Positions 27,733-48,271 of a DNA stretch of 64,000 nucleotides are shown one piece after another (the stretch's first letter is position 1; every line of letters begins with the position of its first letter). The notes below the pieces were generated by a model. The model was given only the letters and a program-made list of their open reading frames with translations, did not search any database and was not told where the DNA came from. The position numbers and the translations under genes are program-made. Source of the DNA: Myxococcota bacterium (GTDB lineage: Bacteria > Myxococcota_A > UBA9160 > JAFDDA01); the NCBI GenBank assembly GCA_965228475.1, contig OZ245817.1:1824001-1888000 (forward strand), read 5' to 3'.

Positions 27733-28884
27733 TCAGTGGGGTCGCTCGAGGTCCGGCACGGTGATCCGGGCCATCTCCGCGAAGGAGTTCCCGAGCTGCC
27801 CGACCACGACCCAGCTCGTTCCCGCGGCGGAGAGGGCAAGAAGGAAGAGCCCGAGACAGGCCACGACCCGCGGCGCCACGCTCCGCCGCGTCGGTTCGGC
27901 CCGCTCGGGTGCCTTCCTGCGGACGGTGCGCGGCGCCGGCGCCGGAAAGACGCCGGCGTCCGCCAGCCAGTCCGCGATCTCGCGCCGCGCGTCCGCGGGG
28001 CTCGCGCCGCGGGCGGCCCGTTCGAGCCGTTCGCGAAGGGCCTGGGTGCTGCGCCCGCGCCGCTCGGGTTCGGACCGCAGCGCGTCGTGGACCACCCGGC
28101 GAAGGGCACGCGGCGTCTTCGGGACGACACGACCGAGTGCCGGGACCCGCCCCGCGGCGATCCGTTTCAGCAGCGGGTCCGTCTCCTCGTCCGGAGCGCC
28201 GAAGGGCAGGCGTCCCGCCACGAGTTCGTAGACCAGCACGCCGAAGGAGAAGACGTCGCTCCGGAAGTCGAGGCGCGCGCCCTGGATCTGCTCCGGCGAC
28301 ATGTAGGCCGGCGTGCCGAGAGCGGTGCCCGTCCGCGTCAGGCCGTGCCCCCGCGCATCCAGCGCGACGCCGAAGTCGGCGAGCTTCACTTCGCCGCCGC
28401 GGCCGACGAGCACGTTCGCCGGCTTCAGGTCCCGGTGCACCAGCCCGCGGCCGTGGATCTCCTCGAGCCCCCGCACGATCTCGAGCGCGACGAGGCAGGC
28501 GATCCGCGCCGGGAAGGCGCCCGCGCGCTGAAGCAGGGTCCCGAGATCCGCGCCTTCGACGTACTCCTGGGCGATGAAGGGACGCCCGCGAAAGCGGAAG
28601 CAATCGTAGACGCCGACGACGTTCGGGTGGTGGACGCCCGCGACGGCGCGCGCCTCCCGTTCGAATCGTTCGGCCTCCCGGGGGTCGTCGTCGAGGTCGC
28701 GGCGCAGGGCCTTCAGGACGACCCGGCGTTCGAGCGAAGGCTGTGATGCCAGGTAGACCACGCCCATGCCCCCGCGCGCGAGCTCGCGCTCGATCTCGTA
28801 GCGGGCGATCTTGCGTCCTGCCTCGCGCGTGGCCGCGGAAGCAGGCTGGGCGCGACGGGTCCGGGCGGAGCGTCCCGAAGACAC
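27733..28884 (-). CDS. Hanks-type Ser/Thr protein kinase with C-terminal TM helix
   Basis: RGGMGVVY, HRDLKPAN, DFG, GTPAYMSPEQ; TM VVACLGLFLLALSAAG. Confidence 0.93.
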   Translation of the reverse strand: MSSGRSARTRRAQPASAATREAGRKIARYEIERELARGGMGVVYLASQPSLERRVVLKALRRDLDDDPREAERFEREARAVAGVHHPNVVGVYDCFRFRGRPFIAQEYVEGADLGTLLQRAGAFPARIACLVALEIVRGLEEIHGRGLVHRDLKPANVLVGRGGEVKLADFGVALDARGHGLTRTGTALGTPAYMSPEQIQGARLDFRSDVFSFGVLVYELVAGRLPFGAPDEETDPLLKRIAAGRVPALGRVVPKTPRALRRVVHDALRSEPERRGRSTQALRERLERAARGASPADARREIADWLADAGVFPAPAPRTVRRKAPERAEPTRRSVAPRVVACLGLFLLALSAAGTSWVVVGQLGNSFAEMARITVPDLERPH

Positions 28885-28896
28885 GAGGGGCTCGGG

Positions 28897-29292
28897 CTAG
28901 AGGTCCGGGAGCTCGTAGACGGGCGGCGGGCCGTCCCGCTTTTCGAGCACGATCTGGAGGACGTGGCCGCCCAGGGCGATGCGGTCCCCGTGCTCGATCG
29001 GCTCGCTGCGGATGGTCTCGCCGTTCAGGCTCGTCCCGTTCGTGCTCCCGAGATCCACGGCGCGGAACCGGCCGGCGACGAACTCGATGGCGAGGTGCTC
29101 CTGGGAGATCGCTTCGTCCGGGAGAACGAGGTCGGCGTCCGTGGCGCGGCCGATCACGGTCCGTGGCCCTCCGACCGGAAACTCGTTGCCTGCCCCCGGG
29201 CCTTCGATCACGACGAGCGTCGCGCGCCAGGCGCCGAATCCTTCGTCCCGATCCGTCGTCGCATCCCGTTTGACCGTGCGTCCGTCCCGCAT
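28897..29292 (-). CDS. Stand-alone FHA domain protein
   Basis: IGR, ISQEH, DLGSTNGT. Confidence 0.92.
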   Translation of the reverse strand: MRDGRTVKRDATTDRDEGFGAWRATLVVIEGPGAGNEFPVGGPRTVIGRATDADLVLPDEAISQEHLAIEFVAGRFRAVDLGSTNGTSLNGETIRSEPIEHGDRIALGGHVLQIVLEKRDGPPPVYELPDL

Positions 29293-29409
29293 GCCGACCT
29301 CCCAAGGCCCACGCGGGCCCCTCCGCGGGCACCGAGGAGTGCCCGCCTTCCGTTCGCTACGGCAGGCCGGGGTGCGGGAAGGGTGAAACGGATCACAGCG
29401 CCGTACGGC

Positions 29410-30099
29410 TCAGCGTTCGTTGAAGCGGTATCCGACCCCGCGGACCGTCTCGATCACGCGGCGCTTCCGGCCGAGCTTCCGCCGGATGGCCTTCACGTGG
29501 GTGTCGACGGAGCGGTGCCCGGCCGCGGCATCGTCGCCCCAGACCGCCTCCACCAGCCGGCCGCGCGAGAGCACCCGGCCGGCATCGCCCATGAGGGTCT
29601 CGAGCAGCTCGAACTCGCGCGGCGTCAGGGCGATCGGCTCGTCGTCCACGCGCGCGCTGCGCGCCTCGACGTCCAGTACGACGCCGCCCCTCCGCTTCGG
29701 GGCCGCGGCTTCGGCCCCGGAGCGGGAGGTGGAGCGCCGGAGGATCGCGCGGACGCGGCCCGCCAGCTCGCGTCCGAAGAAGGGCTTCGGGACGAAGTCG
29801 TCCACGCCGCATTCGAAAGCCAGGATGCGGTCGATCTCGCTGTCGTAGCGGGTCACGATGACGACCGGGACGTGGGCCAGATCCTTCTCGTCGTGCAGCA
29901 GTCGCACGAGCCCGTGTCCCGATACGTCCGGCAGGTCGAGCTCGGTCACGAGCAGGTCGGGTGCCGACGCGCGGGCTCGTTCGAGGGCCCGCGCGGCGGT
30001 CTCGGCCTCGACCACGGCAATCGGCTCCTCGGCCAGGGCCTCGATGATTCGCCGCCTCGACTCGCGGTCGCTGTCGACGATCAACGCCGTCCGATCCAT
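29410..30099 (-). CDS. OmpR/PhoB family response regulator with atypical receiver (phosphoacceptor Asp->Glu)
   Basis: Receiver LIVDSD..PDLLVTELDLPD..KPF; wHTH LTPREFELL, RSVDTHVKAIRRKL, IETVRGVGYRF. Confidence 0.9.
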   Translation of the reverse strand: MDRTALIVDSDRESRRRIIEALAEEPIAVVEAETAARALERARASAPDLLVTELDLPDVSGHGLVRLLHDEKDLAHVPVVIVTRYDSEIDRILAFECGVDDFVPKPFFGRELAGRVRAILRRSTSRSGAEAAAPKRRGGVVLDVEARSARVDDEPIALTPREFELLETLMGDAGRVLSRGRLVEAVWGDDAAAGHRSVDTHVKAIRRKLGRKRRVIETVRGVGYRFNER

Positions 30100-30146
30100 G
30101 GTGCCTGGGAGCCTCCCGCGTGCCCCTGTATGAGAACAGCAAGTGT

Positions 30147-30236
30147 GTGACGGAATCGGGTCGAAGCGGTGAAACACGGGTATCAAAGCGGTGACCGCGG
30201 ACGGACGCGGTCATTCAAGCTCCATGCGGCCGTCAC
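30147..30236. promoter_or_regulatory. Pho-box-like 11-bp-period direct repeats on both strands of the divergent promoter
   Basis: Minus: GGTCAC/TGATAC/TTTCAC/CGACCC/CGTCAC at 11-bp period (AAGCGGTGA exact at 30164 and 30186); plus: GGTCAT 30209, CTCCAT 30220, CGTCAC 30231. Confidence 0.55.
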
Positions 30237-30285
30237 GCAGCCAGCGCGCGGGTGCGCCATACACAGAACTGCGGAAGGAGCGGCA

Positions 30286-30615
30286 ATGCTGGACCGGATC
30301 GGTACGGAATCGGATGTGCAGTTCGAAGCGGACTGGCGGCTGGCCCGGGCGGTTTGCCAGGGAGATCCCGCGGCCTTCGCCCGGGTCTACGGCACCTATC
30401 TCCCGCCGGTGGCCCGCTTCGCAGCGAAGCACTGCACTTCGTCCCATGCGGCTGCCGAGCTCTCGGCGACCGCGCTCACCGCCGTGTTCGAGCACCTCGA
30501 GGGGTACTCGGGCCGGGTGGCGCTGGCGGCCTGGGTCCTCGCGATCTGCCGCAAGGTCCACGCCCTCGAGAGCGAGGCCAGCGGGCACGAAGCCCAGGAC
30601 GTTCGTTTCGGCTGA
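30286..30615 (+). CDS. ECF sigma-like protein containing only region 2 (109 aa)
   Basis: AAGGAG RBS; DWRLARAVCQGDPAAFARVY...LAAWVLAICR resembles ECF regions 1.2-2; stops before any region 4. Confidence 0.7.
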   Translation: MLDRIGTESDVQFEADWRLARAVCQGDPAAFARVYGTYLPPVARFAAKHCTSSHAAAELSATALTAVFEHLEGYSGRVALAAWVLAICRKVHALESEASGHEAQDVRFG

Positions 30616-30626
30616 GCCGCCTCCGG

Positions 30627-31469
30627 TCAGGCGGCCCGGCCGCCTTCTTCGCCACCTTCATCACGATTCCCGATCTCCCGGTATGCGCTCGGCGTCAGGC
30701 CGACCCGGCGCCGGAAGGTCGAGGTGAAGTGGCCGAGCGAACGCCAGCCGGTCTCGGCGGCCACCTCGATCACGGGCCGGTCCGTGGTGCGCAGGAGCTC
30801 CTTGGCGCGGCGCAGGCGGAGCTCCGACATGTACTGCCGGAAGGTGGTCGCGAGTTCGGTGCGAAAGAGTCTCGAGGTCTGTCGTTCCGACGTCCCCAGC
30901 TGCAGGGCGACGCTCGCGAGGTTCACCGAGTCGAGGGGGCCCTGGCCGAGCTCGTCGAGGACCCGCAAGAGCTGACTGCGGCGCTCCCGGGCCCTTCGTG
31001 GTTCGCGCGCCCGCGCCTCGATGAATCCGCCCGGGCCCGGCCGGATCAGGGCCAGCAGTTCGACCCGTCGAGCGGTTCGCTCGAGGTCACAGCCGGGGGC
31101 GGAAGCGTCGGGGGAGTTCGCGAGATCCCGCAGCAGCCGAGCCCCGCGGCGCGCGACGTCGCTGCCGGCGCGGTGGAGGTAGGGGCATTCGCCTTCTCTC
31201 GAGGGCGGCAGGCCCGCCAGGTGCCGGACCTCGAGGGCCCAGAGTTCGTCGGACTCGAAGGCCAGGAGGGTCGCGCCGGGACGATCCGCCTGGATCCGGA
31301 CCGCGCTCCCGGAGGGCACCGTGACGACGTCCCCGGCCTCGGCCCGCCATCGGAGGTCGCCGCCGTCGCTGACGATGGCGGTCTCTCGTTCGATCCAGAA
31401 CAAGGCCGGCCCCCGGATCTCGGTGGGCTCCGTGTGGGGTTCGATCGGCGCGACGTGGGGGGGTTCCAA
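30627..31469 (-). CDS. AraC/XylS family transcriptional regulator
   Basis: Cupin-like AGDVVTVPSG; LRLRRAKELL..VIEVAAETGWRSLGHFTSTFRRRVGLTPSAYR; TTG start uncertain. Confidence 0.88.
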   Translation of the reverse strand: MEPPHVAPIEPHTEPTEIRGPALFWIERETAIVSDGGDLRWRAEAGDVVTVPSGSAVRIQADRPGATLLAFESDELWALEVRHLAGLPPSREGECPYLHRAGSDVARRGARLLRDLANSPDASAPGCDLERTARRVELLALIRPGPGGFIEARAREPRRARERRSQLLRVLDELGQGPLDSVNLASVALQLGTSERQTSRLFRTELATTFRQYMSELRLRRAKELLRTTDRPVIEVAAETGWRSLGHFTSTFRRRVGLTPSAYREIGNRDEGGEEGGRAA

Positions 31470-31839
31470 GGGGCACCTTGCCGGCTCGGCGTTTCCGGTT
31501 TCGCTCGACGGGAGCCCGAAGGCGGGGGCCGGAACTCGTGATTCGTTGGCGTTGGGGAAGGCGGTCTGCAGCACGCGCGAACTCCTCTCGCGACGTTCCC
31601 TTCCCGAAGTCGAGGTGGAAGATACGGGGCCTGGGTGGCAAGCCCGCGCAGGGGGAAAGGCACTTCGGCGGAGGCCCGGACGCGATCGTGAAGGCCGAAA
31701 ACGTTGCGCGCACCGCGCGGTGCGCTGCGTGAAGTTGCTCCGGCACGAGGTCGTGACGTTGATGTGAGGCGTCCGTTCGAACGAGAGCCGGCCGGGAGTG
31801 TGTTGAAGTTCGACGGACCGGAAGCCTATGCTGCCCGCG

Positions 31840-32940
31840 ATGTCACACGCAGCGATCGCGCGACGGTTCCCGATTCGAGTCACTCTTGCCTGCCTCCTCG
31901 TGACCGCCTGCGCGGGTGCGGGGCCCGAAGGCGAGCTGATTCCGAAGGTCTACGACGGGAGGCTGGTGGCGACCCCGGCGACGATCGCCTTTCCGGAAGT
32001 TCGTGAGGGTTGTGTGGGTTCGGTCGATCTCGAGATCGCCAATACGAGCCCGAACCTGCCCATTTCGATCACGAACATCGCGACGCCGCACGGCGCACTT
32101 CGCTTCGCCGAGTCGCTGCCGATCCGGATCGAACCCGGGGACCGCCGCAACCTGGCCTTCCACTTCAGTCCCGACGGGCCGGGTGCGCGTACGGGCGAGG
32201 TCGTGATCCAGACGGACGAAGGGCGCCTTCGCCCCCTGGCGCTTCCCGTGACGGCCCAGGCTCGCGCGGCCGTCCCGCGGGCACAGGCCATCGCACCGGC
32301 GCCGCTCGATCTCGTCTTCGTGCTCGACGTCTCGACCACGATGAACGAGCTGGCGGCCCTGCGCGCGGCCGTGATCCGCGTTTTCGACGTCGCCCGGGCC
32401 AGCGGCCACGACGTCCGCTTCGGACTGACGACCTTCGAGAACGACGTGCGGGTCCACGGCGCCGGCCGCTTCCTCGAGCCCGAGGCGTTCCTGGCCGAGC
32501 TCGACTCCCAGCTGCTGGAGGGAAGCTGGCTCCCGAACCCCGAGCTTCCGCGGCAGCTCCTGAACTTCGACTTCCAGGAGAACATCCTCGATGCGCTGGC
32601 CCTCTCGGCAAGCGAGTTCGAGTTCCGGCCGGACGCACGCCACTTCTTCCTCTTGATGACGGACGACACGTTCCTCGAGCCGCCGGACCGCTTCAGCGAC
32701 GGGACGCCGGTGCTGCACTCCTTCGCCGAGGTCTCGCAGGCCCTCGTGGATCGCGAGGTGAGGCTCTTCTCCGTGCACGCTCCCCAGAGCGGGCGGGGGC
32801 TCTCCTCGCGGTACGAAGGCGCTCCCTCCCTGGTCGCGGCGACCGAGGGTGCCTGGTTCGAGATCGCCGACGTGGACCGGGGTGTGCTCGCCCTCGATTC
32901 GCTGCTCGAGGACCTGGTCGCCGGAGACCTCTGCGACTGA
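31840..32940 (+). CDS. Lipoprotein with Ig-like (ASH/choice-of-anchor-D-like) and vWA domains
   Basis: Lipobox VTAC; beta-rich Ig-like segment; LDLVFVLDVSTTM MIDAS-like, LMTDD. Confidence 0.8.
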   Translation: MSHAAIARRFPIRVTLACLLVTACAGAGPEGELIPKVYDGRLVATPATIAFPEVREGCVGSVDLEIANTSPNLPISITNIATPHGALRFAESLPIRIEPGDRRNLAFHFSPDGPGARTGEVVIQTDEGRLRPLALPVTAQARAAVPRAQAIAPAPLDLVFVLDVSTTMNELAALRAAVIRVFDVARASGHDVRFGLTTFENDVRVHGAGRFLEPEAFLAELDSQLLEGSWLPNPELPRQLLNFDFQENILDALALSASEFEFRPDARHFFLLMTDDTFLEPPDRFSDGTPVLHSFAEVSQALVDREVRLFSVHAPQSGRGLSSRYEGAPSLVAATEGAWFEIADVDRGVLALDSLLEDLVAGDLCD

Positions 32941-33083: not shown

Positions 33084-34055
33084 ATGCAGAGCCTCCCCCC
33101 TCTCCGATCCCTCTCGCCGCTTCTCCTCGGGCTCTTCGTCCTGTCGGGAGCGGTCGCCATGGTTCGCCCGGCGGCGGCGCAGGAACTCGTGCTGCGCCCC
33201 CAGTACCTTCCGGGCGACGTCTACCGCCTCTCCCTGACGAAGCAGACCGTCACGGACGCTGCGTCGCGTAGTCACGACGGCCGCTCCTTCGAGGAGGACG
33301 TCGAGCTCGCCTACAGCGCGCGCGTCGAAGTCCTGGAGGTCGATTCGGACGGACAGCCCGTGCGCGAGCGCCACGAGCGCGTGCGTCTGACCTTCGAACG
33401 CCCGGACGGATCTGGCTCACTCTTCCGCAAGGGGACCCGGTACGAGGTCCGGCGCGGCGAAGGCGGCTCCGTCGCGCTCTTCGTTCGCGGCGCGCGCGTG
33501 GATCGGGAGATCGAGCGGGTCGTTGCACCGATCCTCGAGGGCCAGTTCGAGCACGGCCCGGGACCGGCCCTGGTCGACCCCGGACGGCCCGTCGGCATCG
33601 GCGACCGCTGGGAGCTCTCGGAGGGGCAAGCGCGCGAGATGCTCCGCCGGGAAGGCTGGCGCGCCATCTCCTTCGACGGCGCGCCGACGGCAACCCTCGT
33701 GCGCCATCCGACCGAACCCCGCATGGCGCGGCTCGTCTACCGCATTCCGCTCGACTGGGTCGAGCCGGTCCGTTCCGCCCCGAACGCCGAGACGTCGAAG
33801 TCGGGCGGGATCTTCCAGGGCACGGTCGATCTTCCTCCGGACCCGCACGGCCGTCCGCTCGCGCACGCTTCGAGTCTCGAGACGGATGTGTCCGGGCTCA
33901 TCCAGCGCCACGGCGTCACCCGCAACGTTCCCTGGCGGCTCTCCCAGTCCAAGCGCTTCGGGCAGTCCGTCGAGAGCATCGCTCGCTCACCGCGCTCGGA
34001 CGGCGCCTGGGCTGCTACGGGCCACCCGGCGAGCCCGCCCCCCGAATCGCGCTGA
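33084..34055 (+). CDS. Exported hypothetical beta-rich protein
   Basis: Signal peptide ending AAA-Q; PVGIGDRW motif; normal codon usage. Confidence 0.65.
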   Translation: MQSLPPLRSLSPLLLGLFVLSGAVAMVRPAAAQELVLRPQYLPGDVYRLSLTKQTVTDAASRSHDGRSFEEDVELAYSARVEVLEVDSDGQPVRERHERVRLTFERPDGSGSLFRKGTRYEVRRGEGGSVALFVRGARVDREIERVVAPILEGQFEHGPGPALVDPGRPVGIGDRWELSEGQAREMLRREGWRAISFDGAPTATLVRHPTEPRMARLVYRIPLDWVEPVRSAPNAETSKSGGIFQGTVDLPPDPHGRPLAHASSLETDVSGLIQRHGVTRNVPWRLSQSKRFGQSVESIARSPRSDGAWAATGHPASPPPESR

Positions 34056-34422
34056 TCCCGGGAGGGGCGGACCGGCCTCTTCACGAAGTGCGCGCGGGCC
34101 TTCGAGTTCGCTGACCCCGTAGCCCGCGGGTCGACGCTTCTTCTTCTTCTTCGAGTCACAGAATGGCGACGAACGTGTGAGCGGCGTGGTGCACGCTGCT
34201 CGTGCATCGGATTCGTGCGCAACGGTGCCGGAACCCGCACCGAAAGCGAACGTTTCGTGCGCGATGGCGACACCCGACCGTTGCCGGCGTCACGGAACGA
34301 AGACGAATCCGTGAAGGAAGCAACAACACGGCTTCCGCCTCGCGTTCCGCGCGCGCACCCAAGATATGATCCGGCCGCTTCTTCGGAGCACGATGTTCCG
34401 CTCGTCGAGGAGAAAGCCCTGC

Positions 34423-35229
34423 ATGATGTGCTGCGGTCCCTCTGGGAGTCTGCCGTTCCTGCGATCGTTCGTCGCGCTCGTCCTGGCCGTCGCTTGGGTC
34501 GGGGTCGCGGGCTCCGCCGCGGGCGAGGCTCGCGTCGACGATTTCCGCGTGAAGGTCGAGAAGTGGGTCGAGACACGGCAGATCCTGTCGGAGGAGAAGT
34601 CCGATTGGGACGCCGAGCGCGAGCTGCTTCGCGCTTCGCGAGACCTGCTCCGTCAGCAGAAGAAAGCGCTGGCGGAAGAGGTCGCGACGCTCGAAGCGAC
34701 GATCACGGAAGCCGACCAGGAGCGCACGGATCTGTTGCTCGACCGCGGGGAGTACAAGCGGTCCACCACCGTCATGGCGGAGCGTCTGCTCGGCCTCGAG
34801 CAGGACGTGAAGGACCTCGTTCCGTGGCTCCCTGAGCCGTTGCAGGCCAAGCTCGAGCCGCTGCTGGCCCAGATCCCCGAAGACCCCGAGGCGAGTCGCG
34901 CGAGCCTCGGCCAGCGGCTGATCAACGTGCTCGGCGTGATCCTCCAGTCCGAGAAGTTCGACTCGACCGCCACGCTGAGCGGAGAGACCCGGGCCGTCCG
35001 GGAGGGCGACACGCAGAAGGTCCAGGTCCGAACGCTCTACTGGGGGCTCGGCCAGGCCGTCTACGTCGACTCCCAGGGCGAGGTGGCCGGGATCGGGAAG
35101 CCCGGTGCGGAGGGCTGGACCTTCGCGGACGAGCCGGGCCTCGCCGACGACGCCGAGCTCCTGCTCGACATCTACGAGGGCAACGTCGACGTGATTCGCT
35201 TCGTCGACGTGCCGGTGACCGTCCGATGA
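34423..35229 (+). CDS. DUF3450-like periplasmic coiled-coil protein
   Basis: Signal peptide, long coiled coil, VRTLYWGLGQAVY; first gene of a TtpC-type TonB operon; start uncertain. Confidence 0.78.
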   Translation: MMCCGPSGSLPFLRSFVALVLAVAWVGVAGSAAGEARVDDFRVKVEKWVETRQILSEEKSDWDAERELLRASRDLLRQQKKALAEEVATLEATITEADQERTDLLLDRGEYKRSTTVMAERLLGLEQDVKDLVPWLPEPLQAKLEPLLAQIPEDPEASRASLGQRLINVLGVILQSEKFDSTATLSGETRAVREGDTQKVQVRTLYWGLGQAVYVDSQGEVAGIGKPGAEGWTFADEPGLADDAELLLDIYEGNVDVIRFVDVPVTVR

Positions 35230-36653: not shown

Positions 36654-36661
36654 GCCGCGGC

Positions 36662-37656: not shown

Positions 37657-38061
37657 ATGGCGAACCGCAGCATCCTCGACGAACGCGAAGAGCCGCTCGA
37701 GATCAACCTCGCGCCGATGATCGACTGCGTCTTCATCCTGTTGATCTTCTTCATCGTCACGACGGTCTTCGTCGAGGCGCCGGGCATCGAGATCCTGAAG
37801 CCCGATGCGACGGTGGACGTCGACCTCGAGAAGAACAGCATCCTGATCGGGATCACCGAGGACAACCAGGTGATCTACGGCGGCCGCGTCCTCGGCATCG
37901 CGGGGGTCGGCGCCCGCGTGAAGGCGCTGCTCAATCGCGAAGACCTGCCCGTGATCATCCAGGCCGATTCCCGCGCGGACCACGGCGTCTTCTCCGACGT
38001 CTGGAGCGAGGTCAAGAACGCCGGCGCCAAGAAGATCAGCATCTCGACGCGGAACGACTGA
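37657..38061 (+). CDS. exbD: Biopolymer transporter ExbD/TolR (second copy)
   Basis: [33 protein letters not shown]. Confidence 0.92.
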
Positions 38062-40112: not shown

Positions 40113-40143
40113 GCGCAGACGCGACGACGAAGACGCGGATCGC

Positions 40144-43100
40144 ATGAAGCTGCTGCATCGGACATGGGCTCGAAGCGGAACGGAGCGCCGGCAACCCGGC
40201 TGGCGCCTCTTGGCGGCGCTGCTCGGCCTTCTCCTGATGGCGGGGCCGAGCGTCGCGCGGGCCGAGGAAGAGACCGGCCGGGAAGGCGTTCTCGGCGGGC
40301 AGGTCTTCGACGGAGACAGCGGGGATCCGGTCCCGGGCGTGACGGTCATCCTCACCTGGCCCGAGCCCGAGGACGGCAGCGAAGCCCGGCAGGCGATCGA
40401 GACGACCGATGCCGACGGTGCCTACCGCTTCGGCTCGGTCCCCGCCGGCTACTACAGCGTGACCTTCTCGAAGACCGGCTACCGCGCCGCCAAGATGACC
40501 CGCTTCGAGGTGCTCGCCGGGGAGGTGAACCGGGCCGACTTCCCGCTCCAGCCCGCGCCCGTCGACACCGCGGACTCCGTACTCGAGCTCGAGGCCTTCG
40601 TCGTGGAGGCGGAGGTCGTCGAGGACATCCTGAACGAGCTCGAGCTGCGCATGGACTCGGACCAGCTCCTCAACGTGATGAGCGCCGAGGACTTCTCGAA
40701 GTTCGCCGCGAGCGACGTCGCCGACGCACTCAAACGGGTCTCGGGCGTCAACGTCGTCGAGGGCCAGTTCGCGATCATCCGGGGTCTCGACGATCGCTAC
40801 AACTCGACCCTCTACAACGGCGCGCCCGTCCCGAGCCCGGACCCGGACCGGCAATCCGTCCAGCTCGACCTCTTCCCCTCGGACATCGTCAGCAACCTGA
40901 TCATCTCCAAGACCTTCGCCCCGGACCTGCCGAGCAACTCCTCGGGCGGCGCCATCAACATCCTCACCCACGACTACCCGGAGCGGTTCGAGTTCAAGCT
41001 CAGCGGCGGCACGGGCTGGAACGACAACGCCGTCCCGACCTTCCTCGACTTCGTGAAGGAGTCGGCCACCGGCGTCGACAAATCCGGCCTCAGCGACACG
41101 ATCGAGAGCGACTACGGCGGCCTCCTCGGCGGCCGCTACGAGATCTTCGGCCGGGAGGTTCGGCTGAAGCTCGTCGGGAATCGCGAGACGGACTACGAGA
41201 CGGAGGAGGGGATGTTCGAGGAGCGGGAGCCGGGCGACCCTCCGGACAATCCCGATCCCTTTGGAAACTGCGCCGTGATTCCGAGATTTGTCTTCGGCGT
41301 CGGATTCGTGTGCGACGTCCCGCTTGTCGTCTTCCCATCGGACCTGAACAATGGCCTCCTAGGCCTCACAGGTGGCCGGTTCGAGCAGCAGAAGAGTCGT
41401 CGCGAGGTTCAGCTGACCGCCTACGGCGGCGCGGGCTTCGATCTCGACCGAGAGGGTGCCCACCAGATCGACGGCTCCGTTTTCTACACGCGAAAGAAAG
41501 AGGGGTCAGTCGAGCTTCGGAGCAACGGGTTCCTTCCGGGGGTCGACCTTTCGGAGCTTGACCCGACCGACATCAACAACAGCGGGGATTTCGATGATTT
41601 TGTCGCACTCCCCAAGTCCTGGGTCGCGCGGTCCATCCGGCAGTCCGTCCTCGACACCGCAGCGGATGGTCCGGTCTTCTTCACGAGTTTCTCTGAGAGC
41701 CGGGCATTCGAGCGAGAACGTGATCTTCGCGTCTATCAGGCGAACGGCGACCACGACTTCGGGCGACTCCTGGAAGGGCTTCGCGCGAGCTGGGCGTGGA
41801 ACCGCTCTGAGACGAACCAGAACGAATCTGTCTACGGATTGCGATACTTTGCGGAACCTCCGAACGCTGCCGACGTCGGTGTGACCGACCCTCCGACCGA
41901 CCCGACGCTATATCCCCTCGAATTCGACGATGTGCTCGGTCCGGGCCCCCGCTGTCAAAGCGAAACGGGCATCGAATCCACGCAGAACTGTTTCGTCGCG
42001 AACAATGGAATCCTCTTCAGCGAGACCTCGATCTTCGAAGAGCAGGACTTCTTTCGGTTCGATGGAGAGTTCGAACGGGGGCTGTTCAGCTGGCTGACCT
42101 TCTCGTTGAAGGGCGGCGCTTGGTGGGAGGAAGCCGAGCGAGACGTGCAGGCGGGCTTCCTCGAGAACGTTTCCGTCGACGGCGAGAGTAACCAGTTTGC
42201 AATCATTGCCCCGACCGAGGAGGCGCTCGGCGGGGCACCCTTCGAAGACTGTGACGATGGGAACTGCCTAGATCGCGATGAGGACGATGTGTTCCAGTTC
42301 GTCCGGAGCAACACGAACCGCTCTGAACGCGACATCTTCGCTTGGCATCTGAACGGCAAGGCGTCCTTCTTTGACCGGCTCGATCTGCTGGCGGGGCTCC
42401 GTCGGGAGCGGATCGAGATCCGTTCCTTCAACAATCCCTTCGGGGATGGCAGTGGGGCGCCCACGTTCGGGATTCCGCGGATATTCCCGAGTCGATTCAC
42501 GCTATTCGATCGTCTCGACAATCCTGATCGCCCAAACGAGGCCGACCCCCTGAACCCCTTCAACGAGGTTGACCCAATGGATCCGCGGGTGACGGACCCG
42601 GATTTCGCGTTCAATGACCAACTTCTCGGCATCCAGGTTCCCATGGTCCCCTGTCCCACTGCCGATCGGCCCGATCGGATGTGCTCCGATCTCCGGCGCG
42701 GAGATCTCGAAGGTCTGCTCAACGGCGTGATCGATGAGGCATTCATCCTGCCTTCCTACGGTGTTGCCCTTCGGCCCCTCGAGGGTCTCACGTTCCGTGG
42801 CGCCTACTCGCGAACGGTCGCGAGACCCTCGTTTCGTGAGCTCGGATACTACGTAACGGTCGAGACTGGGACCGATGACCGAACGGTCGGGAACCCGCAG
42901 GTAAAGCTCTCGCCGGTCGAGAGCTGGGACCTTCGTGGCGAGTACGTCTGGGGAGACCTTGGGGATATCGTTGCAGTCAGCCTCTTCAAGAAGAACATCG
43001 ACGAACCGATCGAGCGGATCGTCGTTCGTGATCCCCTGGTCCTGACAGGCGATGCAGAGTTTCGAACGTTCTTCAACAATCCCAATACTGCGTCTCTGCG

Positions 43101-43740
43101 GGGCTATGAGATCGAGGCGCGGAAGAGCCTTGGGTTCCTATCGTTGAGTTTCCTGGATCGGTTCGACATCAAGCGACCCCGGTGGCTGAAGGGCTTCGAC
43201 TTCCTCCAGTACCTCTCGGTTGGCGGCAACTTCACGAAGATCGACGCCACCGTGAAACGGACGGATGGTGCGGTTCGTGGGGCGGCCGCCTATTTCGCAA
43301 ATGTGCCATCAGGGACCTTCGAGTTCGAAAACATCGAACCTGAGCGAAGGCTTTTCAACCAGCCGGAGTGGATCCTGAATGCGGATATCAGCTTCGACCA
43401 CCCCGATTGGGGCACGAAGCTTACTCTGGCGTACTTCGAGATCAGCGACATTCTCGATGCGGCTGGCACCGCGTCCTTGAACAACTCGGGCGAGCCGTTC
43501 TCCTTCACCTTGGATCAGTACAAGGACTCGTTCCATCAGCTGGACTTCATCGCGAGCCAGAAGGCGCGGATCGAGTTCCTGCGGGCCGATCTGACGGTGA
43601 AGCTCAGCATCAAGAACCTGACGGACAGCACGCGCCGTCTGATCTACGACCCCAACCAGCTCGTCGACCGGATCGCCGAGCGCGAGTACAAGAAGGGCCG
43701 CGACTACTCGCTCTCGTTCTCGTGGAAGTGGGAGTGGTAG
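40144..43740 (+). CDS. TonB-dependent receptor with N-terminal carboxypeptidase-regulatory-like domain and large loop insertions
   Basis: Signal; GQVFDGDSGDPVPG; plug DVADALKRVSGV..IRGL..RYN..LDLFP; YSRTVARPSFREL; GNPQV; terminal YSLSFSWKWEW. Confidence 0.93.
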   Translation: MKLLHRTWARSGTERRQPGWRLLAALLGLLLMAGPSVARAEEETGREGVLGGQVFDGDSGDPVPGVTVILTWPEPEDGSEARQAIETTDADGAYRFGSVPAGYYSVTFSKTGYRAAKMTRFEVLAGEVNRADFPLQPAPVDTADSVLELEAFVVEAEVVEDILNELELRMDSDQLLNVMSAEDFSKFAASDVADALKRVSGVNVVEGQFAIIRGLDDRYNSTLYNGAPVPSPDPDRQSVQLDLFPSDIVSNLIISKTFAPDLPSNSSGGAINILTHDYPERFEFKLSGGTGWNDNAVPTFLDFVKESATGVDKSGLSDTIESDYGGLLGGRYEIFGREVRLKLVGNRETDYETEEGMFEEREPGDPPDNPDPFGNCAVIPRFVFGVGFVCDVPLVVFPSDLNNGLLGLTGGRFEQQKSRREVQLTAYGGAGFDLDREGAHQIDGSVFYTRKKEGSVELRSNGFLPGVDLSELDPTDINNSGDFDDFVALPKSWVARSIRQSVLDTAADGPVFFTSFSESRAFERERDLRVYQANGDHDFGRLLEGLRASWAWNRSETNQNESVYGLRYFAEPPNAADVGVTDPPTDPTLYPLEFDDVLGPGPRCQSETGIESTQNCFVANNGILFSETSIFEEQDFFRFDGEFERGLFSWLTFSLKGGAWWEEAERDVQAGFLENVSVDGESNQFAIIAPTEEALGGAPFEDCDDGNCLDRDEDDVFQFVRSNTNRSERDIFAWHLNGKASFFDRLDLLAGLRRERIEIRSFNNPFGDGSGAPTFGIPRIFPSRFTLFDRLDNPDRPNEADPLNPFNEVDPMDPRVTDPDFAFNDQLLGIQVPMVPCPTADRPDRMCSDLRRGDLEGLLNGVIDEAFILPSYGVALRPLEGLTFRGAYSRTVARPSFRELGYYVTVETGTDDRTVGNPQVKLSPVESWDLRGEYVWGDLGDIVAVSLFKKNIDEPIERIVVRDPLVLTGDAEFRTFFNNPNTASLRGYEIEARKSLGFLSLSFLDRFDIKRPRWLKGFDFLQYLSVGGNFTKIDATVKRTDGAVRGAAAYFANVPSGTFEFENIEPERRLFNQPEWILNADISFDHPDWGTKLTLAYFEISDILDAAGTASLNNSGEPFSFTLDQYKDSFHQLDFIASQKARIEFLRADLTVKLSIKNLTDSTRRLIYDPNQLVDRIAEREYKKGRDYSLSFSWKWEW

Positions 43741-43753
43741 GGCGCGCGGCGTT

Positions 43754-45397
43754 CTAGTTGACCCGGATCGGGACGGGGAGCCGGGCCCGCGCCGCCACGC
43801 GCTCTCCTCCGCGCGTGGGCGGTGTGAAGCGCCAGCCCTCGACCGCGTCGACGATGTAGCGGTCGAAGTCCGGCAGGTCCGAGGCTTCGACCTCAGCGTG
43901 GACGACGTCGCCCTCGGGACTCAGGTCGATCAGCAGGACGACCCTGCCGTGGGCGCGCTTGCGCAGGAGGCGGCGCGGGAACTCGAACCCGCCAGGCTCG
44001 ATCGGCCGAGGCACGGCGTCGAGCTCGCTCCAATGGGCGGGTGTCGCGGGGTCGGGCTCGGAGGCTGCGAGCTCGACGGCCGTGGGTTCAGGGTCCGGCG
44101 CAGGGCGCGTTGCCTCGGCGACGGCCGAGGCGATGGCGTCGCGCCGCTCGGTAAGGCGGGTCTCGAAGGCATCCAGACGCGCGCCATCGCACGGGCCGAG
44201 GCCACAGAAGAGATCGTGGAAGACCGAGGCGGCGACCTTGGTGGCCGACGTGGAGCCGTCGACGACGAGGCTCACCACCGCAATCCGGGGCGCCTCGGCG
44301 GGAGCGACGCCGATGAACCAGCGGTAGCGGCCCGTGGGGTTCGTGCCGCTGAGCGTGCCCGTCTTTCCCGAGACGCGGACGCCTCCGAGGAGCGGTTCGC
44401 CCCGGGCATCGTGGAAGGCGCTTCGCGCCGTGCCGTGCTCGGTGACGTTGACGAGGACCTCTCGCAGCTCGGTGGCGACCTCGGCGGTCCAGACGGGCTG
44501 GGGGGCGGCGCGCTCCGGCGGCTGCATCGGCCGGCCTTCCGCATCCTTCACCCCGGCGATCCAGTAGGGCTCGACGAGTTCGCCCCGCGCGAGCAGCGAG
44601 GCGAGGCGGGCTGCGGACAGCGGGCTGAGGAAGGACCCCGCCAGGCCTGAGCCGAGGCGCCCGAGCGCGAGCGGTCCGTCCAGCGGCTCGAGCCGGCCTG
44701 CGCGGTGCATGGCGCCTGGGACTTCGAGCAGGCCGATCGCCCGGATGGCGCGGATGAGCGCCGTTTCACCGAGGTCCCGGACCGCGAGCCGCGCGAAGCA
44801 CTGGTTGTTCGAGGTGGCCATCGCCTGGGCGAAGGAGACGGAGCGGCCTCCTTCTGCCGGTGGTTCGAGCTGGCTCGTGTAGAGCTCGTAGGGGCTCCCG
44901 TCGTAGCGGCACGTTCGTGCCGTGGCGGTCGGAGCCTCCTGGAGCACGGCGGCTGCGGTCACGACCTTCATCAGGGATGCGGTGGGGTAGGTGCCCGTCG
45001 CGGGGAAGCGATCCGGGTCGGTCGAGACATAGGCGAGCAGGGCGCCGCTCCCCGGATCCATCACCACCACGTGGCCCAGGTCGACGCCGGACCGGATCAG
45101 CGTGTCGCGAATGCGCCGCTCGAGCGAAAGGTCGAGCGTGTACTCGACCTCGTAGTAGGCGTCCGTTTCCGCGCCGGGTGCCTCGGGCTCCCAGGGCAAT
45201 CGCTCGACCCAAGGCAGGCTCGCCCCGGTCCCGAGTGCCGCTTCCGGCTCGGGTGCGAGGCCGCGAACTCCAGGCGGGAGGAGCGTCGCCCAGGCGGGGC
45301 TCGTCGAAGTCGGTGTCTCGGCACGCGCGGCCGTACCGCTGCCCATGTGAAGAACGAGCAGCGCCAGCGACGCGGCGAGGGCCGGAGCGGGGCGCAT
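43754..45397 (-). CDS. Penicillin-binding transpeptidase domain fused to a TonB C-terminal domain
   Basis: Signal peptide; SxxK (SLMK), SxN (SNN), KTG; Pro/Ala linker; C-terminal FPRRLL..WRFTPPTRGG. Confidence 0.88.
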   Translation of the reverse strand: MRPAPALAASLALLVLHMGSGTAARAETPTSTSPAWATLLPPGVRGLAPEPEAALGTGASLPWVERLPWEPEAPGAETDAYYEVEYTLDLSLERRIRDTLIRSGVDLGHVVVMDPGSGALLAYVSTDPDRFPATGTYPTASLMKVVTAAAVLQEAPTATARTCRYDGSPYELYTSQLEPPAEGGRSVSFAQAMATSNNQCFARLAVRDLGETALIRAIRAIGLLEVPGAMHRAGRLEPLDGPLALGRLGSGLAGSFLSPLSAARLASLLARGELVEPYWIAGVKDAEGRPMQPPERAAPQPVWTAEVATELREVLVNVTEHGTARSAFHDARGEPLLGGVRVSGKTGTLSGTNPTGRYRWFIGVAPAEAPRIAVVSLVVDGSTSATKVAASVFHDLFCGLGPCDGARLDAFETRLTERRDAIASAVAEATRPAPDPEPTAVELAASEPDPATPAHWSELDAVPRPIEPGGFEFPRRLLRKRAHGRVVLLIDLSPEGDVVHAEVEASDLPDFDRYIVDAVEGWRFTPPTRGGERVAARARLPVPIRVN

Positions 45398-45714
45398 GGG
45401 CCAGAAGATATCGCCTGATTTCGCGGAGTTGGCGGGTCTCGCCCGTCCTTCGGGCAGGAATCCGCGACGGCGGCGTTGCGATTTCGTGAGGGTCGTGACG
45501 ATCCCGTGAGCCCCTGCAACACGGGGGCAGGTCCCGCCACTTCAACCTCGAAAAGTCGTCACCCAAGCGTGCCCGCCGGATGGCCGGAGATCGTGGGGGA
45601 TGGCGGCGGATCGGAAGACCCGTCCGAGGCGTGTTCTTAATCTGCGCACCGTTCGGGCCGGAAGAGTCCGGTCGGGACGCAACAGCAGGAACCCAACAGG
45701 GAGCTACCCCAATC

Positions 45715-47403
45715 ATGAAACTGAAATTGTTTGCAGCTCTGGTGCTCGCGGCCGCCGGATTCGCCGGCAACGCGCAGGCGCAGACGGTCGTTGCCGCGGA
45801 CGTCACGTCCGACACGACCTGGAGCGGCGTGATCGTGCTCGACACGGTCATCTTCGTTCGCGACGGCGCGACCCTGACCATCCTCCCCGGTACGATCGTT
45901 CGCGGTCAGCCCCGCTCGGGCCCCGTGGTCGTCGGTTCGACGGTGGGCTCGCCCGGCGCGCTCGTGGTGACCCAGACCGGCCGCATCGTCGCCGATGCGG
46001 ACGAAGCCAACCCGATCATCTTCACGACCGCGGCCGTCGACAACGACAACGACGGCGTGGCCGACGACGATGACGCCAACAACTTCGAGGACTCCTGGGT
46101 CGCCGGCGACACCTTCCTCGACGACACGCCGGCCACGGCGCCCCTCGCTCCGCTGAACACGGCGGGTGAGTCCAACGTCGCCCTCTGGGGTGGCGTGGTG
46201 CTGCTCGGCAACGCGCCGACGAACCTCGCCAACGAGTGCGGCACGGGCTACGGCACCTGCGTGATCGAGGGCCTGACGGTTCCGGGCTTCCCGGCGGCCT
46301 TCGCGACCTACGGTGGCGTGGACCCGAACGACAGCTCGGGCATCCTCGAGTACGTCTCGATCCGCCACGCGGGCGACGAGATCGGCAACGGCAACGAGCT
46401 CAACGGCCTCACCCTCGGTGGCGTCGGCCAGGGCACCAAGATCGCCTTCGTCGAGATCTACGCGAACTTCGACGACGGCTTCGAGTGGTTCGGCGGCACG
46501 GCCTCCGGCTCGAACCTGCACGTCCTGTTCGTGGGCGACGACTCGCTCGACGCCGACCAGGGCTACACGGGCGTCAACCAGTTCGTCTTCGTCGTCATGG
46601 GCTTCTTCGACGAGAACGACGACGACAGCTACGGCTCGCGCTCCGGTGACAAGGCCGGCGAGCTCGACGGCGACGACTGGCGCCCGGACGACCCGGCGCT
46701 GTTCGACAACGTGAACGTGCGCATCAATCAGCCGCTCACCGCGATCGACTCGACGCCCTGGCCGCTCTCGCAGTTCCAGTTCCACAACGTGACGGTCATC
46801 GGCTCGACGCCGGACGCCGGGCAGGAATTCACGCCCAGCTTCCCGGCTTCGACCAACGACGGCATCCAGTGGCGCAACGGTGGCGCGGGCTACGTGTTCC
46901 ACTCCATCGTCGTGAACACCGGCGCCGAGGGCGGGATCGAGATCGATTCCGACATCGGTGACGGTTCGCCGGGCTTCGACACCACGAACAACGTGGCGAA
47001 CGGCCTGGTGGCGCTGGTCTGCTCGACCCTCGACGACGGTGCTGCGCTCTCGGCGGACGAGTCGACGGCGGTGGCCAACGGCAACGCGCTCGCCGACACG
47101 CTCGGTGGCACGCCGCCGGCCTCGAACAACGTGGTCAACAGCCCGCTGTTCCCCGGCCTCGTGAACGAGGACCAGACCTTCGACCCGACCGGTGATGCGG
47201 CCGGCAAGCTCGTGAGCACGCTCAAGAGCTCGCCGATCAACCCGCGGCCGAACTTCGGCCTCACGGGAATCATCGGTTGCCCGACGATCGACAACAAGCT
47301 GGTGACCCCGGTGACGTACCGCGGCGCGTTCGATCGCACCGCCCCGCGCCTCTGGACCACCGGTTGGACGGTCCTGAGCCTCTCCGGCCTGATCGCAGAC
47401 TGA
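45715..47403 (+). CDS. Acidic secreted beta-rich protein of a family typically found beside TonB-dependent receptors
   Basis: AGGAG RBS; signal ending AQA-Q; ATLTILPGT, PIIFT, WGGVVLLGNA, DSSGILEYVSIRHAG, ELNGLTLGGVG, DDGFEWFGG, GDDSLDADQGY, YRGAF..WTTGWT. Confidence 0.8.
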   Translation: MKLKLFAALVLAAAGFAGNAQAQTVVAADVTSDTTWSGVIVLDTVIFVRDGATLTILPGTIVRGQPRSGPVVVGSTVGSPGALVVTQTGRIVADADEANPIIFTTAAVDNDNDGVADDDDANNFEDSWVAGDTFLDDTPATAPLAPLNTAGESNVALWGGVVLLGNAPTNLANECGTGYGTCVIEGLTVPGFPAAFATYGGVDPNDSSGILEYVSIRHAGDEIGNGNELNGLTLGGVGQGTKIAFVEIYANFDDGFEWFGGTASGSNLHVLFVGDDSLDADQGYTGVNQFVFVVMGFFDENDDDSYGSRSGDKAGELDGDDWRPDDPALFDNVNVRINQPLTAIDSTPWPLSQFQFHNVTVIGSTPDAGQEFTPSFPASTNDGIQWRNGGAGYVFHSIVVNTGAEGGIEIDSDIGDGSPGFDTTNNVANGLVALVCSTLDDGAALSADESTAVANGNALADTLGGTPPASNNVVNSPLFPGLVNEDQTFDPTGDAAGKLVSTLKSSPINPRPNFGLTGIIGCPTIDNKLVTPVTYRGAFDRTAPRLWTTGWTVLSLSGLIAD

Positions 47404-47416
47404 GAACGTCACTCCC

Positions 47417-47452
47417 TTCCGGCCCGCCTGCCTGGCGGTGGGCGGGCCGGAA
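47417..47452 (+). other. Intergenic 12-bp stem-loop (mRNA stabiliser or attenuator)
   Basis: TTCCGGCCCGCC...GGCGGGCCGGAA, no clear U-tract. Confidence 0.55.
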
Positions 47453-47485
47453 ACTTCTCCCTGAGGAAGGAAAAGGATTTCGATC

Positions 47486-48271
47486 ATGAAGAAACTGATT
47501 CTGTTGGCATCCATCATTGCGCTCGCGCCGGCCGGCTCCGCCAAGGCGGCGATGATCGCGGGCTTCGATCACAACTCCTACGTCGCAGGCTTCTTGTCGA
47601 CGGACGGCGCGACCCTCGTCGACACGCTCGACGCGCGCTACTCGGACTTCGACCCGACCTTCGGTGCGGGCGCGGAAGCCGGCGCCTTCGGCACGCTCTA
47701 CATGGACGGCTCGTTCGGCTCCACGGCGACGCCGCTCGACGGCTCGGACCCCTACACCTCGACCTCGGGCAGCCTTTCCTCGAACGTGACGGCTCCGGTG
47801 AACGGTGAGCCGGCCGGCGACGTGCCCTTCGGCTCGACGACGGTGCTGACTTCCGAGGGCGTGGCTCCGTTCGGTTCCGAGATCAAGATGGTGGCCAACG
47901 CGGCGACCAGCGTCGTCTACTCGGCGGACCTGTCCTCGATCGCCTCGGTCGGTGACAACTGGAACCTGAGCTTCGCGGGCCAGACGCCGATCGGTACGGC
48001 CACGGTCGGCATCGAGTTCTCGACGGACGGCGCGAACTACGTGGTGGTCGGTGACGAGACCCTGAACACCGTGGACTCGACCTTCAACGTCGTCCTCGGC
48101 GGTGGCCCGTCGGCCCAGGCGTTCATCCGCCTGACCTTCGACGCCAACCAGCCCTTCATCGACAACCTGGCGATCTTCGCCGACGTGTCGGCCGTGCCGG
48201 AGCCGGCGAGCCTCGCGCTCGTCGCCAGCGGCCTGGTCGCTCTCGCGACGGTCCGCCGCCGCCGCGCCTAG
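47486..48271 (+). CDS. PEP-CTERM surface protein
   Basis: MKKLILLAS signal; IDNLAIF; VPEPASLALVASGLVALATVRRRRA. Confidence 0.93.
   Translation: MKKLILLASIIALAPAGSAKAAMIAGFDHNSYVAGFLSTDGATLVDTLDARYSDFDPTFGAGAEAGAFGTLYMDGSFGSTATPLDGSDPYTSTSGSLSSNVTAPVNGEPAGDVPFGSTTVLTSEGVAPFGSEIKMVANAATSVVYSADLSSIASVGDNWNLSFAGQTPIGTATVGIEFSTDGANYVVVGDETLNTVDSTFNVVLGGGPSAQAFIRLTFDANQPFIDNLAIFADVSAVPEPASLALVASGLVALATVRRRRA

Follow-up and report, generated by a model that had tools for sequence, protein, structure and literature searches.

A conserved TonB motor, receptor and surface-protein locus with Pho-box-type operator motifs in Myxococcota

Gene content of the locus

We analysed a 64,000-nucleotide stretch of the genome of a Myxococcota bacterium (contig OZ245817.1, positions 1,824,001 to 1,888,000; hereafter the window, numbered from its first letter). 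An initial annotation made from the letters alone had singled out some 20 kb of it (27733-48271) as a candidate envelope system in which regulators, a TonB motor operon, a giant TonB-dependent receptor, a transpeptidase fused to a TonB domain and two surface proteins form one regulated module. All the genes listed there are present by gene calls, Pfam and NCBIfam. Here we describe the core of this block, which recurs as a unit in other genomes, and weigh what it may do. Because the window has a G+C content of about 70%, genes were called by third-position G+C; the encoded proteins were scanned against Pfam and NCBIfam. The motor operon, the receptor and their partners are as follows (aa, amino acids; PBP, penicillin-binding protein; AF2, AlphaFold2):

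34366-35229, + strand: DUF3450 protein, TtpB-like, first gene of the operon (PF11932, 76.7 bits)
35226-36653, + strand: TtpC-like long ExbB, 475 aa, with a coiled periplasmic region at the N terminus and a MotA_ExbB channel domain (PF01618) at residues 338-456
36662-37243, + strand: ExbB, 193 aa (PF01618, 82.5 bits)
37246-37647, + strand: ExbD paralogue 1 (PF02472, 100.6 bits)
37657-38061, + strand: ExbD paralogue 2 (PF02472, 92.3 bits)
38061-38714, + strand: TonB, with a membrane anchor, a Glu/Pro-rich linker and a TonB_C domain (PF03544, 36.4 bits)
38745-40112, + strand: TtpD-like exported TPR protein, 455 aa, matching many TPR families
40144-43740, + strand: TonB-dependent receptor, 1198 aa, with a CarboxypepD_reg N-terminal extension, Plug and barrel
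43754-45397, - strand, convergent to the receptor gene: exported PBP-type transpeptidase with a TonB C-terminal domain, the PBP-TonB_C fusion (PF00905, 95.4 bits; PF03544, 37.6 bits)
45715-47403, + strand: secreted acidic protein predicted to be a right-handed parallel beta-helix (AF2 pLDDT 86.9, pTM 0.90)
47486-48271, + strand: PEP-CTERM-anchored beta-sandwich protein (PF07589, 25.2 bits, cut-off 20.7; TIGR02595, 23.5 bits, cut-off 16)
48307-48334, + strand: 12-bp G+C hairpin followed by TTTT (dG -38.9 kcal/mol, z -3.96)
48360-49214, + strand: exported thioredoxin-fold protein without CxxC (protein-atlas look-alikes in Thioredoxin_8/TlpA-like clusters, 0.94-0.95)
49174-49806, - strand: exported 210-aa protein of no known family (no Pfam or NCBIfam match)

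The start and stop codons noted earlier as overlapping do overlap: the DUF3450 gene runs 4 bp into the next gene (35226/35229) and a second overlap lies at 38061. The TtpC call is one of architecture only, made without a TtpC-specific model. Two related genomes, G013 and G027 (G000 denotes the window's own genome, other G numbers related genomes and L numbers fetched loci), encode a long ExbB of 66-69% identity and a TPR protein of 64-65% identity. At L037:10922-12226 (G027:C15) a 434-aa open reading frame (ORF) without a Pfam match lies between the two ExbD genes of an operon copy that is otherwise intact.

The initial annotation had likened the gene order to that of Vibrio TonB2-type systems, and every element of the likeness was found. 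As described in PMC6957404, the TonB2 and TonB3 systems of Vibrio share with the module a DUF3450 gene, a long ExbB-like TtpC, ExbB, ExbD, TonB and a TPR gene in last place, the TPR protein having about 425 aa in Vibrio and 455 aa here. The same source also brings out differences. The Vibrio operon has one ExbD, whereas the module has two paralogues; the outer-membrane receptor gene that the TonB3 operon also contains stands at its start and not, as here, at its end; iron limitation induces the Vibrio operon, which has a Fur box, whereas the module has Pho-box-type operators; and the beta-helix, PEP-CTERM, thioredoxin-fold and PBP-TonB_C partners of the module do not figure in the Vibrio systems as they are described there.

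In the receptor, PF13620 matches residues 50-136 and PF07715 residues 170-269, and a TonB-box-like stretch, LEAFVVEA, can be made out by eye. Its best NCBIfam match, to TIGR01782 (TonB-Xanth-Caul), scores 190.4 bits against a cut-off of 310 and thus falls short of assignment to that subfamily. No match to the receptor was found among PDB sequences.

The acidic protein encoded downstream has a mature pI of 4.05 and, by eye, a classical signal peptide. It belongs to a large family (1239 relatives among 7999 scored candidates), and all 120 relatives listed carry the precomputed Pfam accession PF28492, of which we found no mention in open-access papers and preprints. A wide structural search with VIA-align gave Z values of 15-20 to many beta-helix proteins of unrelated function, including tailspikes, PL6/PL9 lyases, alginate epimerases, GH28, autotransporter passengers and NosD, and a Pfam scan of the protein gave no match. 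In Bacteroidota-like and other distant loci (L113-L117), two or three beta-helix units stand in tandem within open frames of 1004-1446 aa, each unit ending with (Y/F)xGAF...W..WT, the motif that also ends the protein of the window.

The PEP-CTERM protein was modelled as a beta-sandwich (AF2 pLDDT 89.1) most like carbohydrate-binding modules (CBMs), with matches to 8x8h_A (Z 12.1 over 137 residues) and 4bj0_A (Z 11.5). The genome holds 2 exosortases and about 47 PEP-CTERM proteins above the cut-off. A predicted complex of the beta-helix and PEP-CTERM proteins scored 0.07 (mark 0.32), which tells neither way. The terminator placed after the PEP-CTERM gene corresponds to the hairpin at 48307-48334 with its TTTT; a simple promoter and terminator scan reported no sigma-70 promoter and did not list this hairpin. 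As for the thioredoxin-fold protein, a CxxC motif was found in none of 45 orthologues.

Recurrence of the module and of the PBP-TonB_C fusion

Conservation was followed in three samples. For close relatives we took 40 genomes of the window's order, fetched the flanks and laid the window proteins on them; searching more widely, with aligned acidic beta-helix proteins as query, gave 78 loci, all from metagenome-assembled genomes; and a phylum-wide sample comprised 301 genomes. The labels of the 78 loci are mostly Myxococcota or Deltaproteobacteria, 7 are Verrucomicrobiota or its families, and a few distant loci (29-32% identity) are labelled Ignavibacteria, GN15 or Bacteroidota. Many contigs (L040, L042, L047, L061-L064, L067, L068 and others) bear the label 'uncultured Spirochaetales' but belong to genomes placed in the window's order (G028 and G030 in the case of L040 and L042), a conflict of label and placement. 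Since flanks were limited to 10 kb for the 78 loci and the block is cut short by the contig end in many of them, the low counts over this set are lower bounds.

We observed a recurring run of genes for the receptor, the beta-helix protein, one or two PEP-CTERM proteins and the 48360-49214 product, often with the 49174-49806 product added, in G017, G030, G008, G028, G036, G005, G013 and G027. Upstream of the run stands a close (60-75% identity) or distant (31-37%) copy of the DUF3450/long-ExbB/ExbB/ExbD/ExbD/TonB/TPR operon, and Pfam confirms DUF3450, TonB_C and TPR in the distant copies. Across the 78 loci the receptor was found in 71, and in 61 it immediately precedes the beta-helix gene in the same orientation; the thioredoxin-fold gene is present in 61, the PEP-CTERM gene in 54 and the 49174-49806 product in 19. 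Among the motor genes, long ExbB and ExbD were each found in 36 loci, TonB and the TPR gene in 21 each and DUF3450 in 17. All 7 loci labelled Verrucomicrobiota have both the receptor and the beta-helix gene. Given these counts, the core is a real conserved module, and it extends beyond the end coordinate given earlier, to 49806.

Looking further out, full-length beta-helix orthologues (E < 1e-88) occur in 21 of the 301 phylum genomes, and another 82 encode proteins of 450-900 aa that match only the central core of the beta-helix protein. Among 12 of these distant loci, the receptor and/or ExbB/ExbD lie within 10 kb in 10, the receptor is directly upstream in 5 and an OmpR-type regulator is nearby in 8. 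It follows that receptor and beta-helix protein have been paired for long, and in much of the phylum. Within the window's order, by comparison, relatives of the beta-helix protein occur in 10 of the 40 genomes, and a search of G001, a genome of the same genus (89% complete), did not find the module. The receptor region (window 40001-44000) has a G+C content of 0.61-0.66, against 0.70-0.72 in the flanks, and this lower value together with the patchy distribution suggests lateral movement of the block. Among sequencing runs, three with coded organism labels contain 0.89-1.00 of the sampled sequence words, and marine and plastisphere metagenome runs contain smaller shares.

The TonB_C domain of the PBP-TonB_C fusion is 55% identical over 92 aa to the C-terminal domain of the operon TonB, and each is the other's only tblastn match in the genome. 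The SxxK, SxN and KTG motifs of the transpeptidase domain (S141/K144, S196-N197-N198, K345-T346-G347) are invariant in all 31 aligned members, which points to selection on this domain as an active acyl-serine enzyme, and the closest solved structure is that of Mycobacterium tuberculosis PBPA (3un7, E 7.7e-16). The fusion shares these motifs with class B PBPs. Those proteins, however, have an N-terminal pedestal/dimerisation domain and a membrane anchor, whereas in the fusion Pfam found only PF00905 and PF03544 and the N terminus has, by eye, a cleavable-looking signal peptide. Also unlike class B PBPs, the fusion has a C-terminal TonB_C and its gene lies inside the TonB operon in several genomes.

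Full-length fusions were found in 4 of the 78 loci, and 6 other genomes have the fusion gene within the module or next to it. In L035 (G013), L060 and L072 this gene stands between those for TonB and the TPR protein and reads in the same direction, and in L104 it lies, again co-oriented, between the receptor and beta-helix genes; it heads the operon in G027 and lies on the opposite strand in L106. The first relatives retrieved were stand-alone PBPs of 445-483 aa, without TonB_C or Ton genes, and had suggested that the fusion was unique to the window's genome; the module-linked fusions, together with those in metagenomes, where both domains occur in 114 of the best 120 protein clusters matching the fusion, overturned this. 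No prior description of a PBP-TonB_C fusion was found in open-access papers and preprints.

TonB_C also turns up on other proteins. In three distant Myxococcota loci (L121:4157-7087, L122:11043-13721 and L126:6307-8961) receptors carry an N-terminal TonB_C before CarboxypepD_reg and Plug, and the genes lie just downstream of the beta-helix gene. Judging from these receptors, Myxococcota evidently make free use of TonB_C as a module in the periplasm.

Operators, regulators and neighbouring genes

Upstream of the motor operon lie regulatory and accessory genes, and two divergent gaps contain Pho-box-type motifs:

27733-28884, - strand: Ser/Thr protein kinase with a C-terminal membrane segment (Pkinase, 163 bits)
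28897-29292, - strand: FHA-domain protein (FHA, 65.6 bits)
29410-30099, - strand: OmpR/PhoB-family response regulator (Response_reg and Trans_reg_C)
30169-30615, + strand: small ORF with sigma-70 region 2 only (Sigma70_r2, 25.0 bits, marginal against a cut-off of 24)
30627-~31580, - strand: AraC-family regulator, start approximate, the long ORF reaching 31883 (HTH_18, 82.8 bits)
31753-31768, - strand: Pho-box-type dyad CTCAC-N6-GTCAC with one mismatch, in the AraC|VWA divergent gap
31828-32940, + strand: VWA lipoprotein with a beta-sandwich (VWA, 25.1 bits, cut-off 23.8; lipobox by eye)
33084-34055, + strand: exported 323-aa protein without a curated family
45484-45510, - strand: three TCACG half-sites in phase, among them the dyad CTCAC-GGGATC-GTCAC at 45495-45510, within the divergent PBP|beta-helix gap

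The link to phosphate that the initial annotation had put forward found support in both motifs and neighbours, and the Pho-like boxes that it described exist (31753-31768 and 45495-45510). CGTCAC words are enriched, as phased repeats, in the gaps between receptor and beta-helix genes. For counting we used a strict dyad, GTCAC-N6-GTCAC with at most one mismatch, which replaced looser patterns drawn by eye from the module gaps. According to PMC4971064, a Pho box is made up of two direct repeats in phase, spaced by one helical turn, and the dyads have direct repeats in 11-bp phase, in the form found at the genome's own pst, phoU and phoB promoters. In G000, which has 138 dyads in 5.0 Mb (0.028 per kb), these include a perfect one in the phoU|pstS divergent gap, one upstream of the pst-linked porin and one upstream of the canonical phoB. 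The 78 loci hold 148 dyads in 1.34 Mb (0.110 per kb), 46 of them in gaps between module genes in 31 loci, compared with 3-6 such dyads in 3-6 loci for four permuted half-site controls. Module-gap dyads also occur in four loci labelled Verrucomicrobiota (L054, L059, L074 and L103), and a recurrent form, GTCAC-(C/G)GGATC-GTCAC, matches the CTCAC-GGGATC-GTCAC of the window. Of the six perfect sites in G013, one lies 87 bp upstream of porin-pstS-pstC-pstA-pstB-phoU, just after phoB-phoR; this site is the cleaner replicate, since the strict form was fixed after the module gaps and the phoU site had been seen.

Phosphate genes lie near the module in part of the set: ppk1 within 10 kb in 13 of the 78 loci, a ppx fusion in 15, and ppk1, ppx, pstS, pstA or phoU taken together within 10 kb in 20. 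In G017 the order is ppk, regulator, AraC, phoU, pstB, pstA, an unscanned gap, pstS and porin, with the DUF3450 operon divergent; L125 has a phoR-like kinase, a regulator and PhoU, and L121 a Na/Pi cotransporter.

Two further motif observations may be recorded. A perfect inverted repeat, TCACGGA-N11-TCCGTGA, lies at window 34289-34314 in the 310-bp gap upstream of DUF3450 and holds one GTCAC half-site. A perfect dyad, GTCACGGGATCGTCAC, with the same spacer as the module site of the window, is found at L130:5237 (G013:C1:361236), 76 bp upstream of GAPDH, MFS and hexapeptide-transferase genes, and this set in G013 may, from its motif, represent further members of the regulon.

The OmpR/PhoB-type regulator was present in 32 of the 78 loci. 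An alignment confirmed the replacement of Asp by Glu at the phospho-acceptor position described earlier; with this residue, and with 163.2 bits against the PhoB equivalog TIGR02154 (cut-off 296.2), the protein departs from PhoB in both score and acceptor residue, and no histidine kinase gene lies beside it. Glu at this position is not the rule for regulators linked to the module, as seven aligned examples have D in 4, E in 2 and A in 1. The canonical PhoB of G000 is a separate gene beside phoR and pst at 3.81 Mb; the module regulator is a paralogue, 41.6% identical to it, with a recognition-helix region that looks alike by eye.

Other upstream genes are less closely tied to the module. The kinase was found in 2 of the 78 loci and the FHA gene in none, making them neighbours without conservation, and control of the module regulator by the Ser/Thr kinase, as proposed in the initial annotation, is without comparative support. 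The sigma2-only ORF occurs in 0 of the 78 loci and its membership of the module is doubtful. AraC was found in 5 loci, and homologues of 317-319 aa adjoin the module in G017 and G005. The VWA lipoprotein, with a weak choice-of-anchor D match, was found in 1 locus, a 50%-identical copy lying directly upstream of DUF3450 in G027; the 323-aa protein, for which Pfam and NCBIfam gave no match, occurs in 7 loci and also in G013 and G027, its DUF6263-like look-alikes in a protein atlas being a lead only. Both genes recur alongside the full TtpB/TtpC form in G013 and G027, and we regard the two proteins as accessory parts. The earlier idea of one regulated module therefore holds in part: the TonB operon, receptor, downstream genes, OmpR/PhoB regulator and PBP-TonB_C co-occur in other genomes, the very observation on which the initial annotation had staked its claim, whereas the kinase, FHA and sigma2-only genes are not shown to belong with them and AraC and VWA accompany them only occasionally.

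Elsewhere in the window, a purple-acid-phosphatase-like exported protein (Metallophos and Pur_ac_phosph_N) is encoded at 13462-15417, 12 kb upstream of the module; a search of the 570 bp ahead of its gene turned up no GTCAC dyad. An AglB/STT3-like oligosaccharyltransferase gene at 15659-18214 (AglB_L1, AglB_core-like and STT3 matches) lies directly upstream of a 245-aa ORF at 18282-19019 that ends in a PEP-CTERM motif (match at 18945-19013), an arrangement that could link N-glycosylation with an exosortase substrate. A 1174-aa protein encoded at 19020-22544 combines a double zinc ribbon, an adenylate/guanylate cyclase, an AAA_16 ATPase and TPR repeats, and at 60471-62304 a MauE-like gene comes after one resembling that for the methylamine dehydrogenase heavy chain.

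A proposed role in polymer uptake

We believe, at somewhat better than even confidence, that the block is a Pho-regulon, TonB2-type system for the uptake of an extracellular polymer, possibly one that bears phosphorus. The gene content, the conserved synteny, the folds and the operator motifs held in common with pst, phoU and phoB promoters are the fixed points of this proposal, from which we infer induction by phosphate limitation, which way transport runs, what is carried and what each accessory protein does. When phosphate is limiting, a regulator of the PhoB family, which might be the canonical PhoB, the Glu-variant paralogue of the module or both, would bind the GTCAC-N6-GTCAC boxes in the module promoters. 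The motor, consisting of TtpB, TtpC, ExbB, two ExbD, TonB and TtpD, would draw on the proton-motive force to exert force on the receptor at its TonB box. The beta-helix and the CBM-like PEP-CTERM proteins would capture or cut an extracellular polymer, most likely glycan-like and possibly phosphate-bearing, and the receptor would import the fragments. Phosphate would then be freed in the periplasm and taken up by PstSCAB, which would explain why no inner-membrane importer or cytoplasmic catabolic gene is conserved with the module. In a subset of lineages PBP-TonB_C might use its TonB-like domain to dock at the receptor's TonB box or at the cell wall and there remodel peptidoglycan around the machine.

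Phosphate control of such receptors is known from Caulobacter crescentus, where PhoB, acting at PHO boxes, induces TonB-dependent receptors as well as secretion genes in phosphate starvation (PMC11208175). A TtpB/TtpC-type motor and beta-helix, PEP-CTERM and thioredoxin-fold partners, which the module has, are not described there for those receptors, and regulation of the module is read from its motifs.

Several observations weigh against the uptake proposal. Induction by phosphate limitation is predicted from operator motifs, and the strict dyad was fixed only after the module gaps and the exact site upstream of phoU had been seen. No dyad of this stringency lies upstream of DUF3450 in the window, and in G000 ppk, ppx and pst are megabases away from the module. 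The 78 loci are related to one another, and the counts drawn from them are of non-independent events. None of the module proteins could be assigned to a phosphatase, nuclease or lyase family. For the beta-helix protein, Foldseek returned nothing from the PDB at E <= 0.001 and a profile search of PDB sequences found no relative, only a chance-level row at E 0.047, and the predicted structure establishes the fold class alone. Finally, both the beta-helix protein and the PEP-CTERM protein are strongly acidic (pI 4.05), which is awkward for the binding of an anionic polymer unless cations bridge the two.

Much of the same evidence could be read in the opposite direction, with receptor and motor moving the beta-helix protein, the exosortase-processed PEP-CTERM protein or both outwards, in the manner of Oar, so as to build a surface structure in phosphate starvation. 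The receptor has an Oar-type N-terminal architecture of CarboxypepD_reg, Plug and a TonB-box-like stretch, the would-be cargo genes come directly after it in 61 of the 78 loci, and the module lacks an inner-membrane importer. To our knowledge no outer-membrane export route for PEP-CTERM proteins is established, and we count this in favour of export. According to PMC6434023, Oar of Myxococcus xanthus, likewise from Myxococcota, with the same domains and a Ton gene cluster (a likeness of architecture), needs its TonB box and the Ton system for secretion of PopC. The same source, however, ascribes this N-terminal architecture to SusC-type importers as well, and describes PopC as lacking a signal peptide and not encoded beside oar, whereas the partners in the module carry Sec signals, a classical one by eye in the beta-helix protein, and are encoded straight after the receptor. 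In 3 of the 78 loci the block is followed by a GspC-like type II secretion gene, which has a homologue elsewhere in G000, and thus an ordinary export route exists; moreover, the genome has about 47 PEP-CTERM proteins but only 6 receptors. We consider export unlikely, although it leads the alternatives. Less likely again is an ordinary polysaccharide-utilisation-type locus for a carbon source, such as an acidic algal or bacterial exopolysaccharide, with a substrate-responsive OmpR-family regulator whose own operator, the GTCAC dyad, merely looks like a Pho box. Such a locus would suit a beta-helix fold common to PL6/PL9 lyases, alginate epimerases and GH28, the CBM-like fold of the PEP-CTERM protein, the TonB-Xanth-Caul subfamily as best NCBIfam match of the receptor and the AraC regulator adjoining the module in some loci, and TonB2-type genes are reported to serve carbohydrate use in Teredinibacter (PMC10734418).

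SusC/SusD loci, too, combine a large CarboxypepD_reg receptor with surface binding or processing proteins of carbohydrate-active-like folds. They differ in having a SusD lipoprotein beside the receptor, whereas no SusD-family Pfam match was found in the module and the partner is a non-lipoprotein beta-helix; and no glycoside hydrolase, sugar transporter, kinase, isomerase or other sugar catabolic gene is conserved with the block. The same dyad, furthermore, heads pst/phoU/phoB in two genomes, and the 20 loci with ppk, ppx or pst nearby also tell against a carbon-source locus. The least likely of the alternatives is that the 20 kb are not one system at all, with the regulators encoded at 27733-31580, and possibly also the genes for the VWA lipoprotein and the 323-aa protein, being chance neighbours of a TonB-receptor operon. 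This would fit the low counts given above for the kinase, FHA, sigma2-only, VWA and AraC genes, as well as the failure to find the module in G001, but those counts are lower bounds, conservation extends to the core and to the OmpR-type regulator, the VWA and 323-aa genes recur in G013 and G027, and a dyad sits in the AraC|VWA gap. A bolder reading is a force-driven receptor gate for macromolecules that works both ways: PBP-TonB_C, as the first enzyme to use a TonB C-terminal domain as a dock, would bind the TonB box of the receptor or the wall below it and re-tailor peptidoglycan locally, which would allow the motor to push the folded beta-helix and PEP-CTERM proteins out and then pull polymer fragments in during phosphate starvation. 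We consider this improbable and place it, in likelihood, between the carbon-source and the chance-neighbour alternatives. A lanthanide or metal role, raised by a PQQ dehydrogenase beside the module in G036, was dropped because it concerned a single locus.

Returning to the proposed phosphate-linked uptake system, its novelty is partial. No prior description of the assembled module was found in open-access papers and preprints, in keeping with the initial annotation, which had called the system undescribed. On the other hand, TtpB/TtpC/ExbBD/TonB/TtpD is a known type of operon and the beta-helix family already has a Pfam accession. What appears new is the widely conserved set of partners on a Pho-type TonB-dependent locus.

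If the proposal is true, marine and soil Myxococcota and Verrucomicrobiota would share a dedicated, self-powered outer-membrane system that scavenges phosphorus from polymers. Families that have so far had no function, namely the PF28492 beta-helix, the CBM-like PEP-CTERM protein, the thioredoxin-fold protein without cysteines and PBP-TonB_C (at least 114 metagenomic clusters), would gain a testable role. The module would also provide a second, genetically compact test case for TonB-dependent export, a question that has so far been addressed mainly with Oar and PopC, and it makes it possible to ask what a TonB C-terminal domain does when it is fused to an enzyme.

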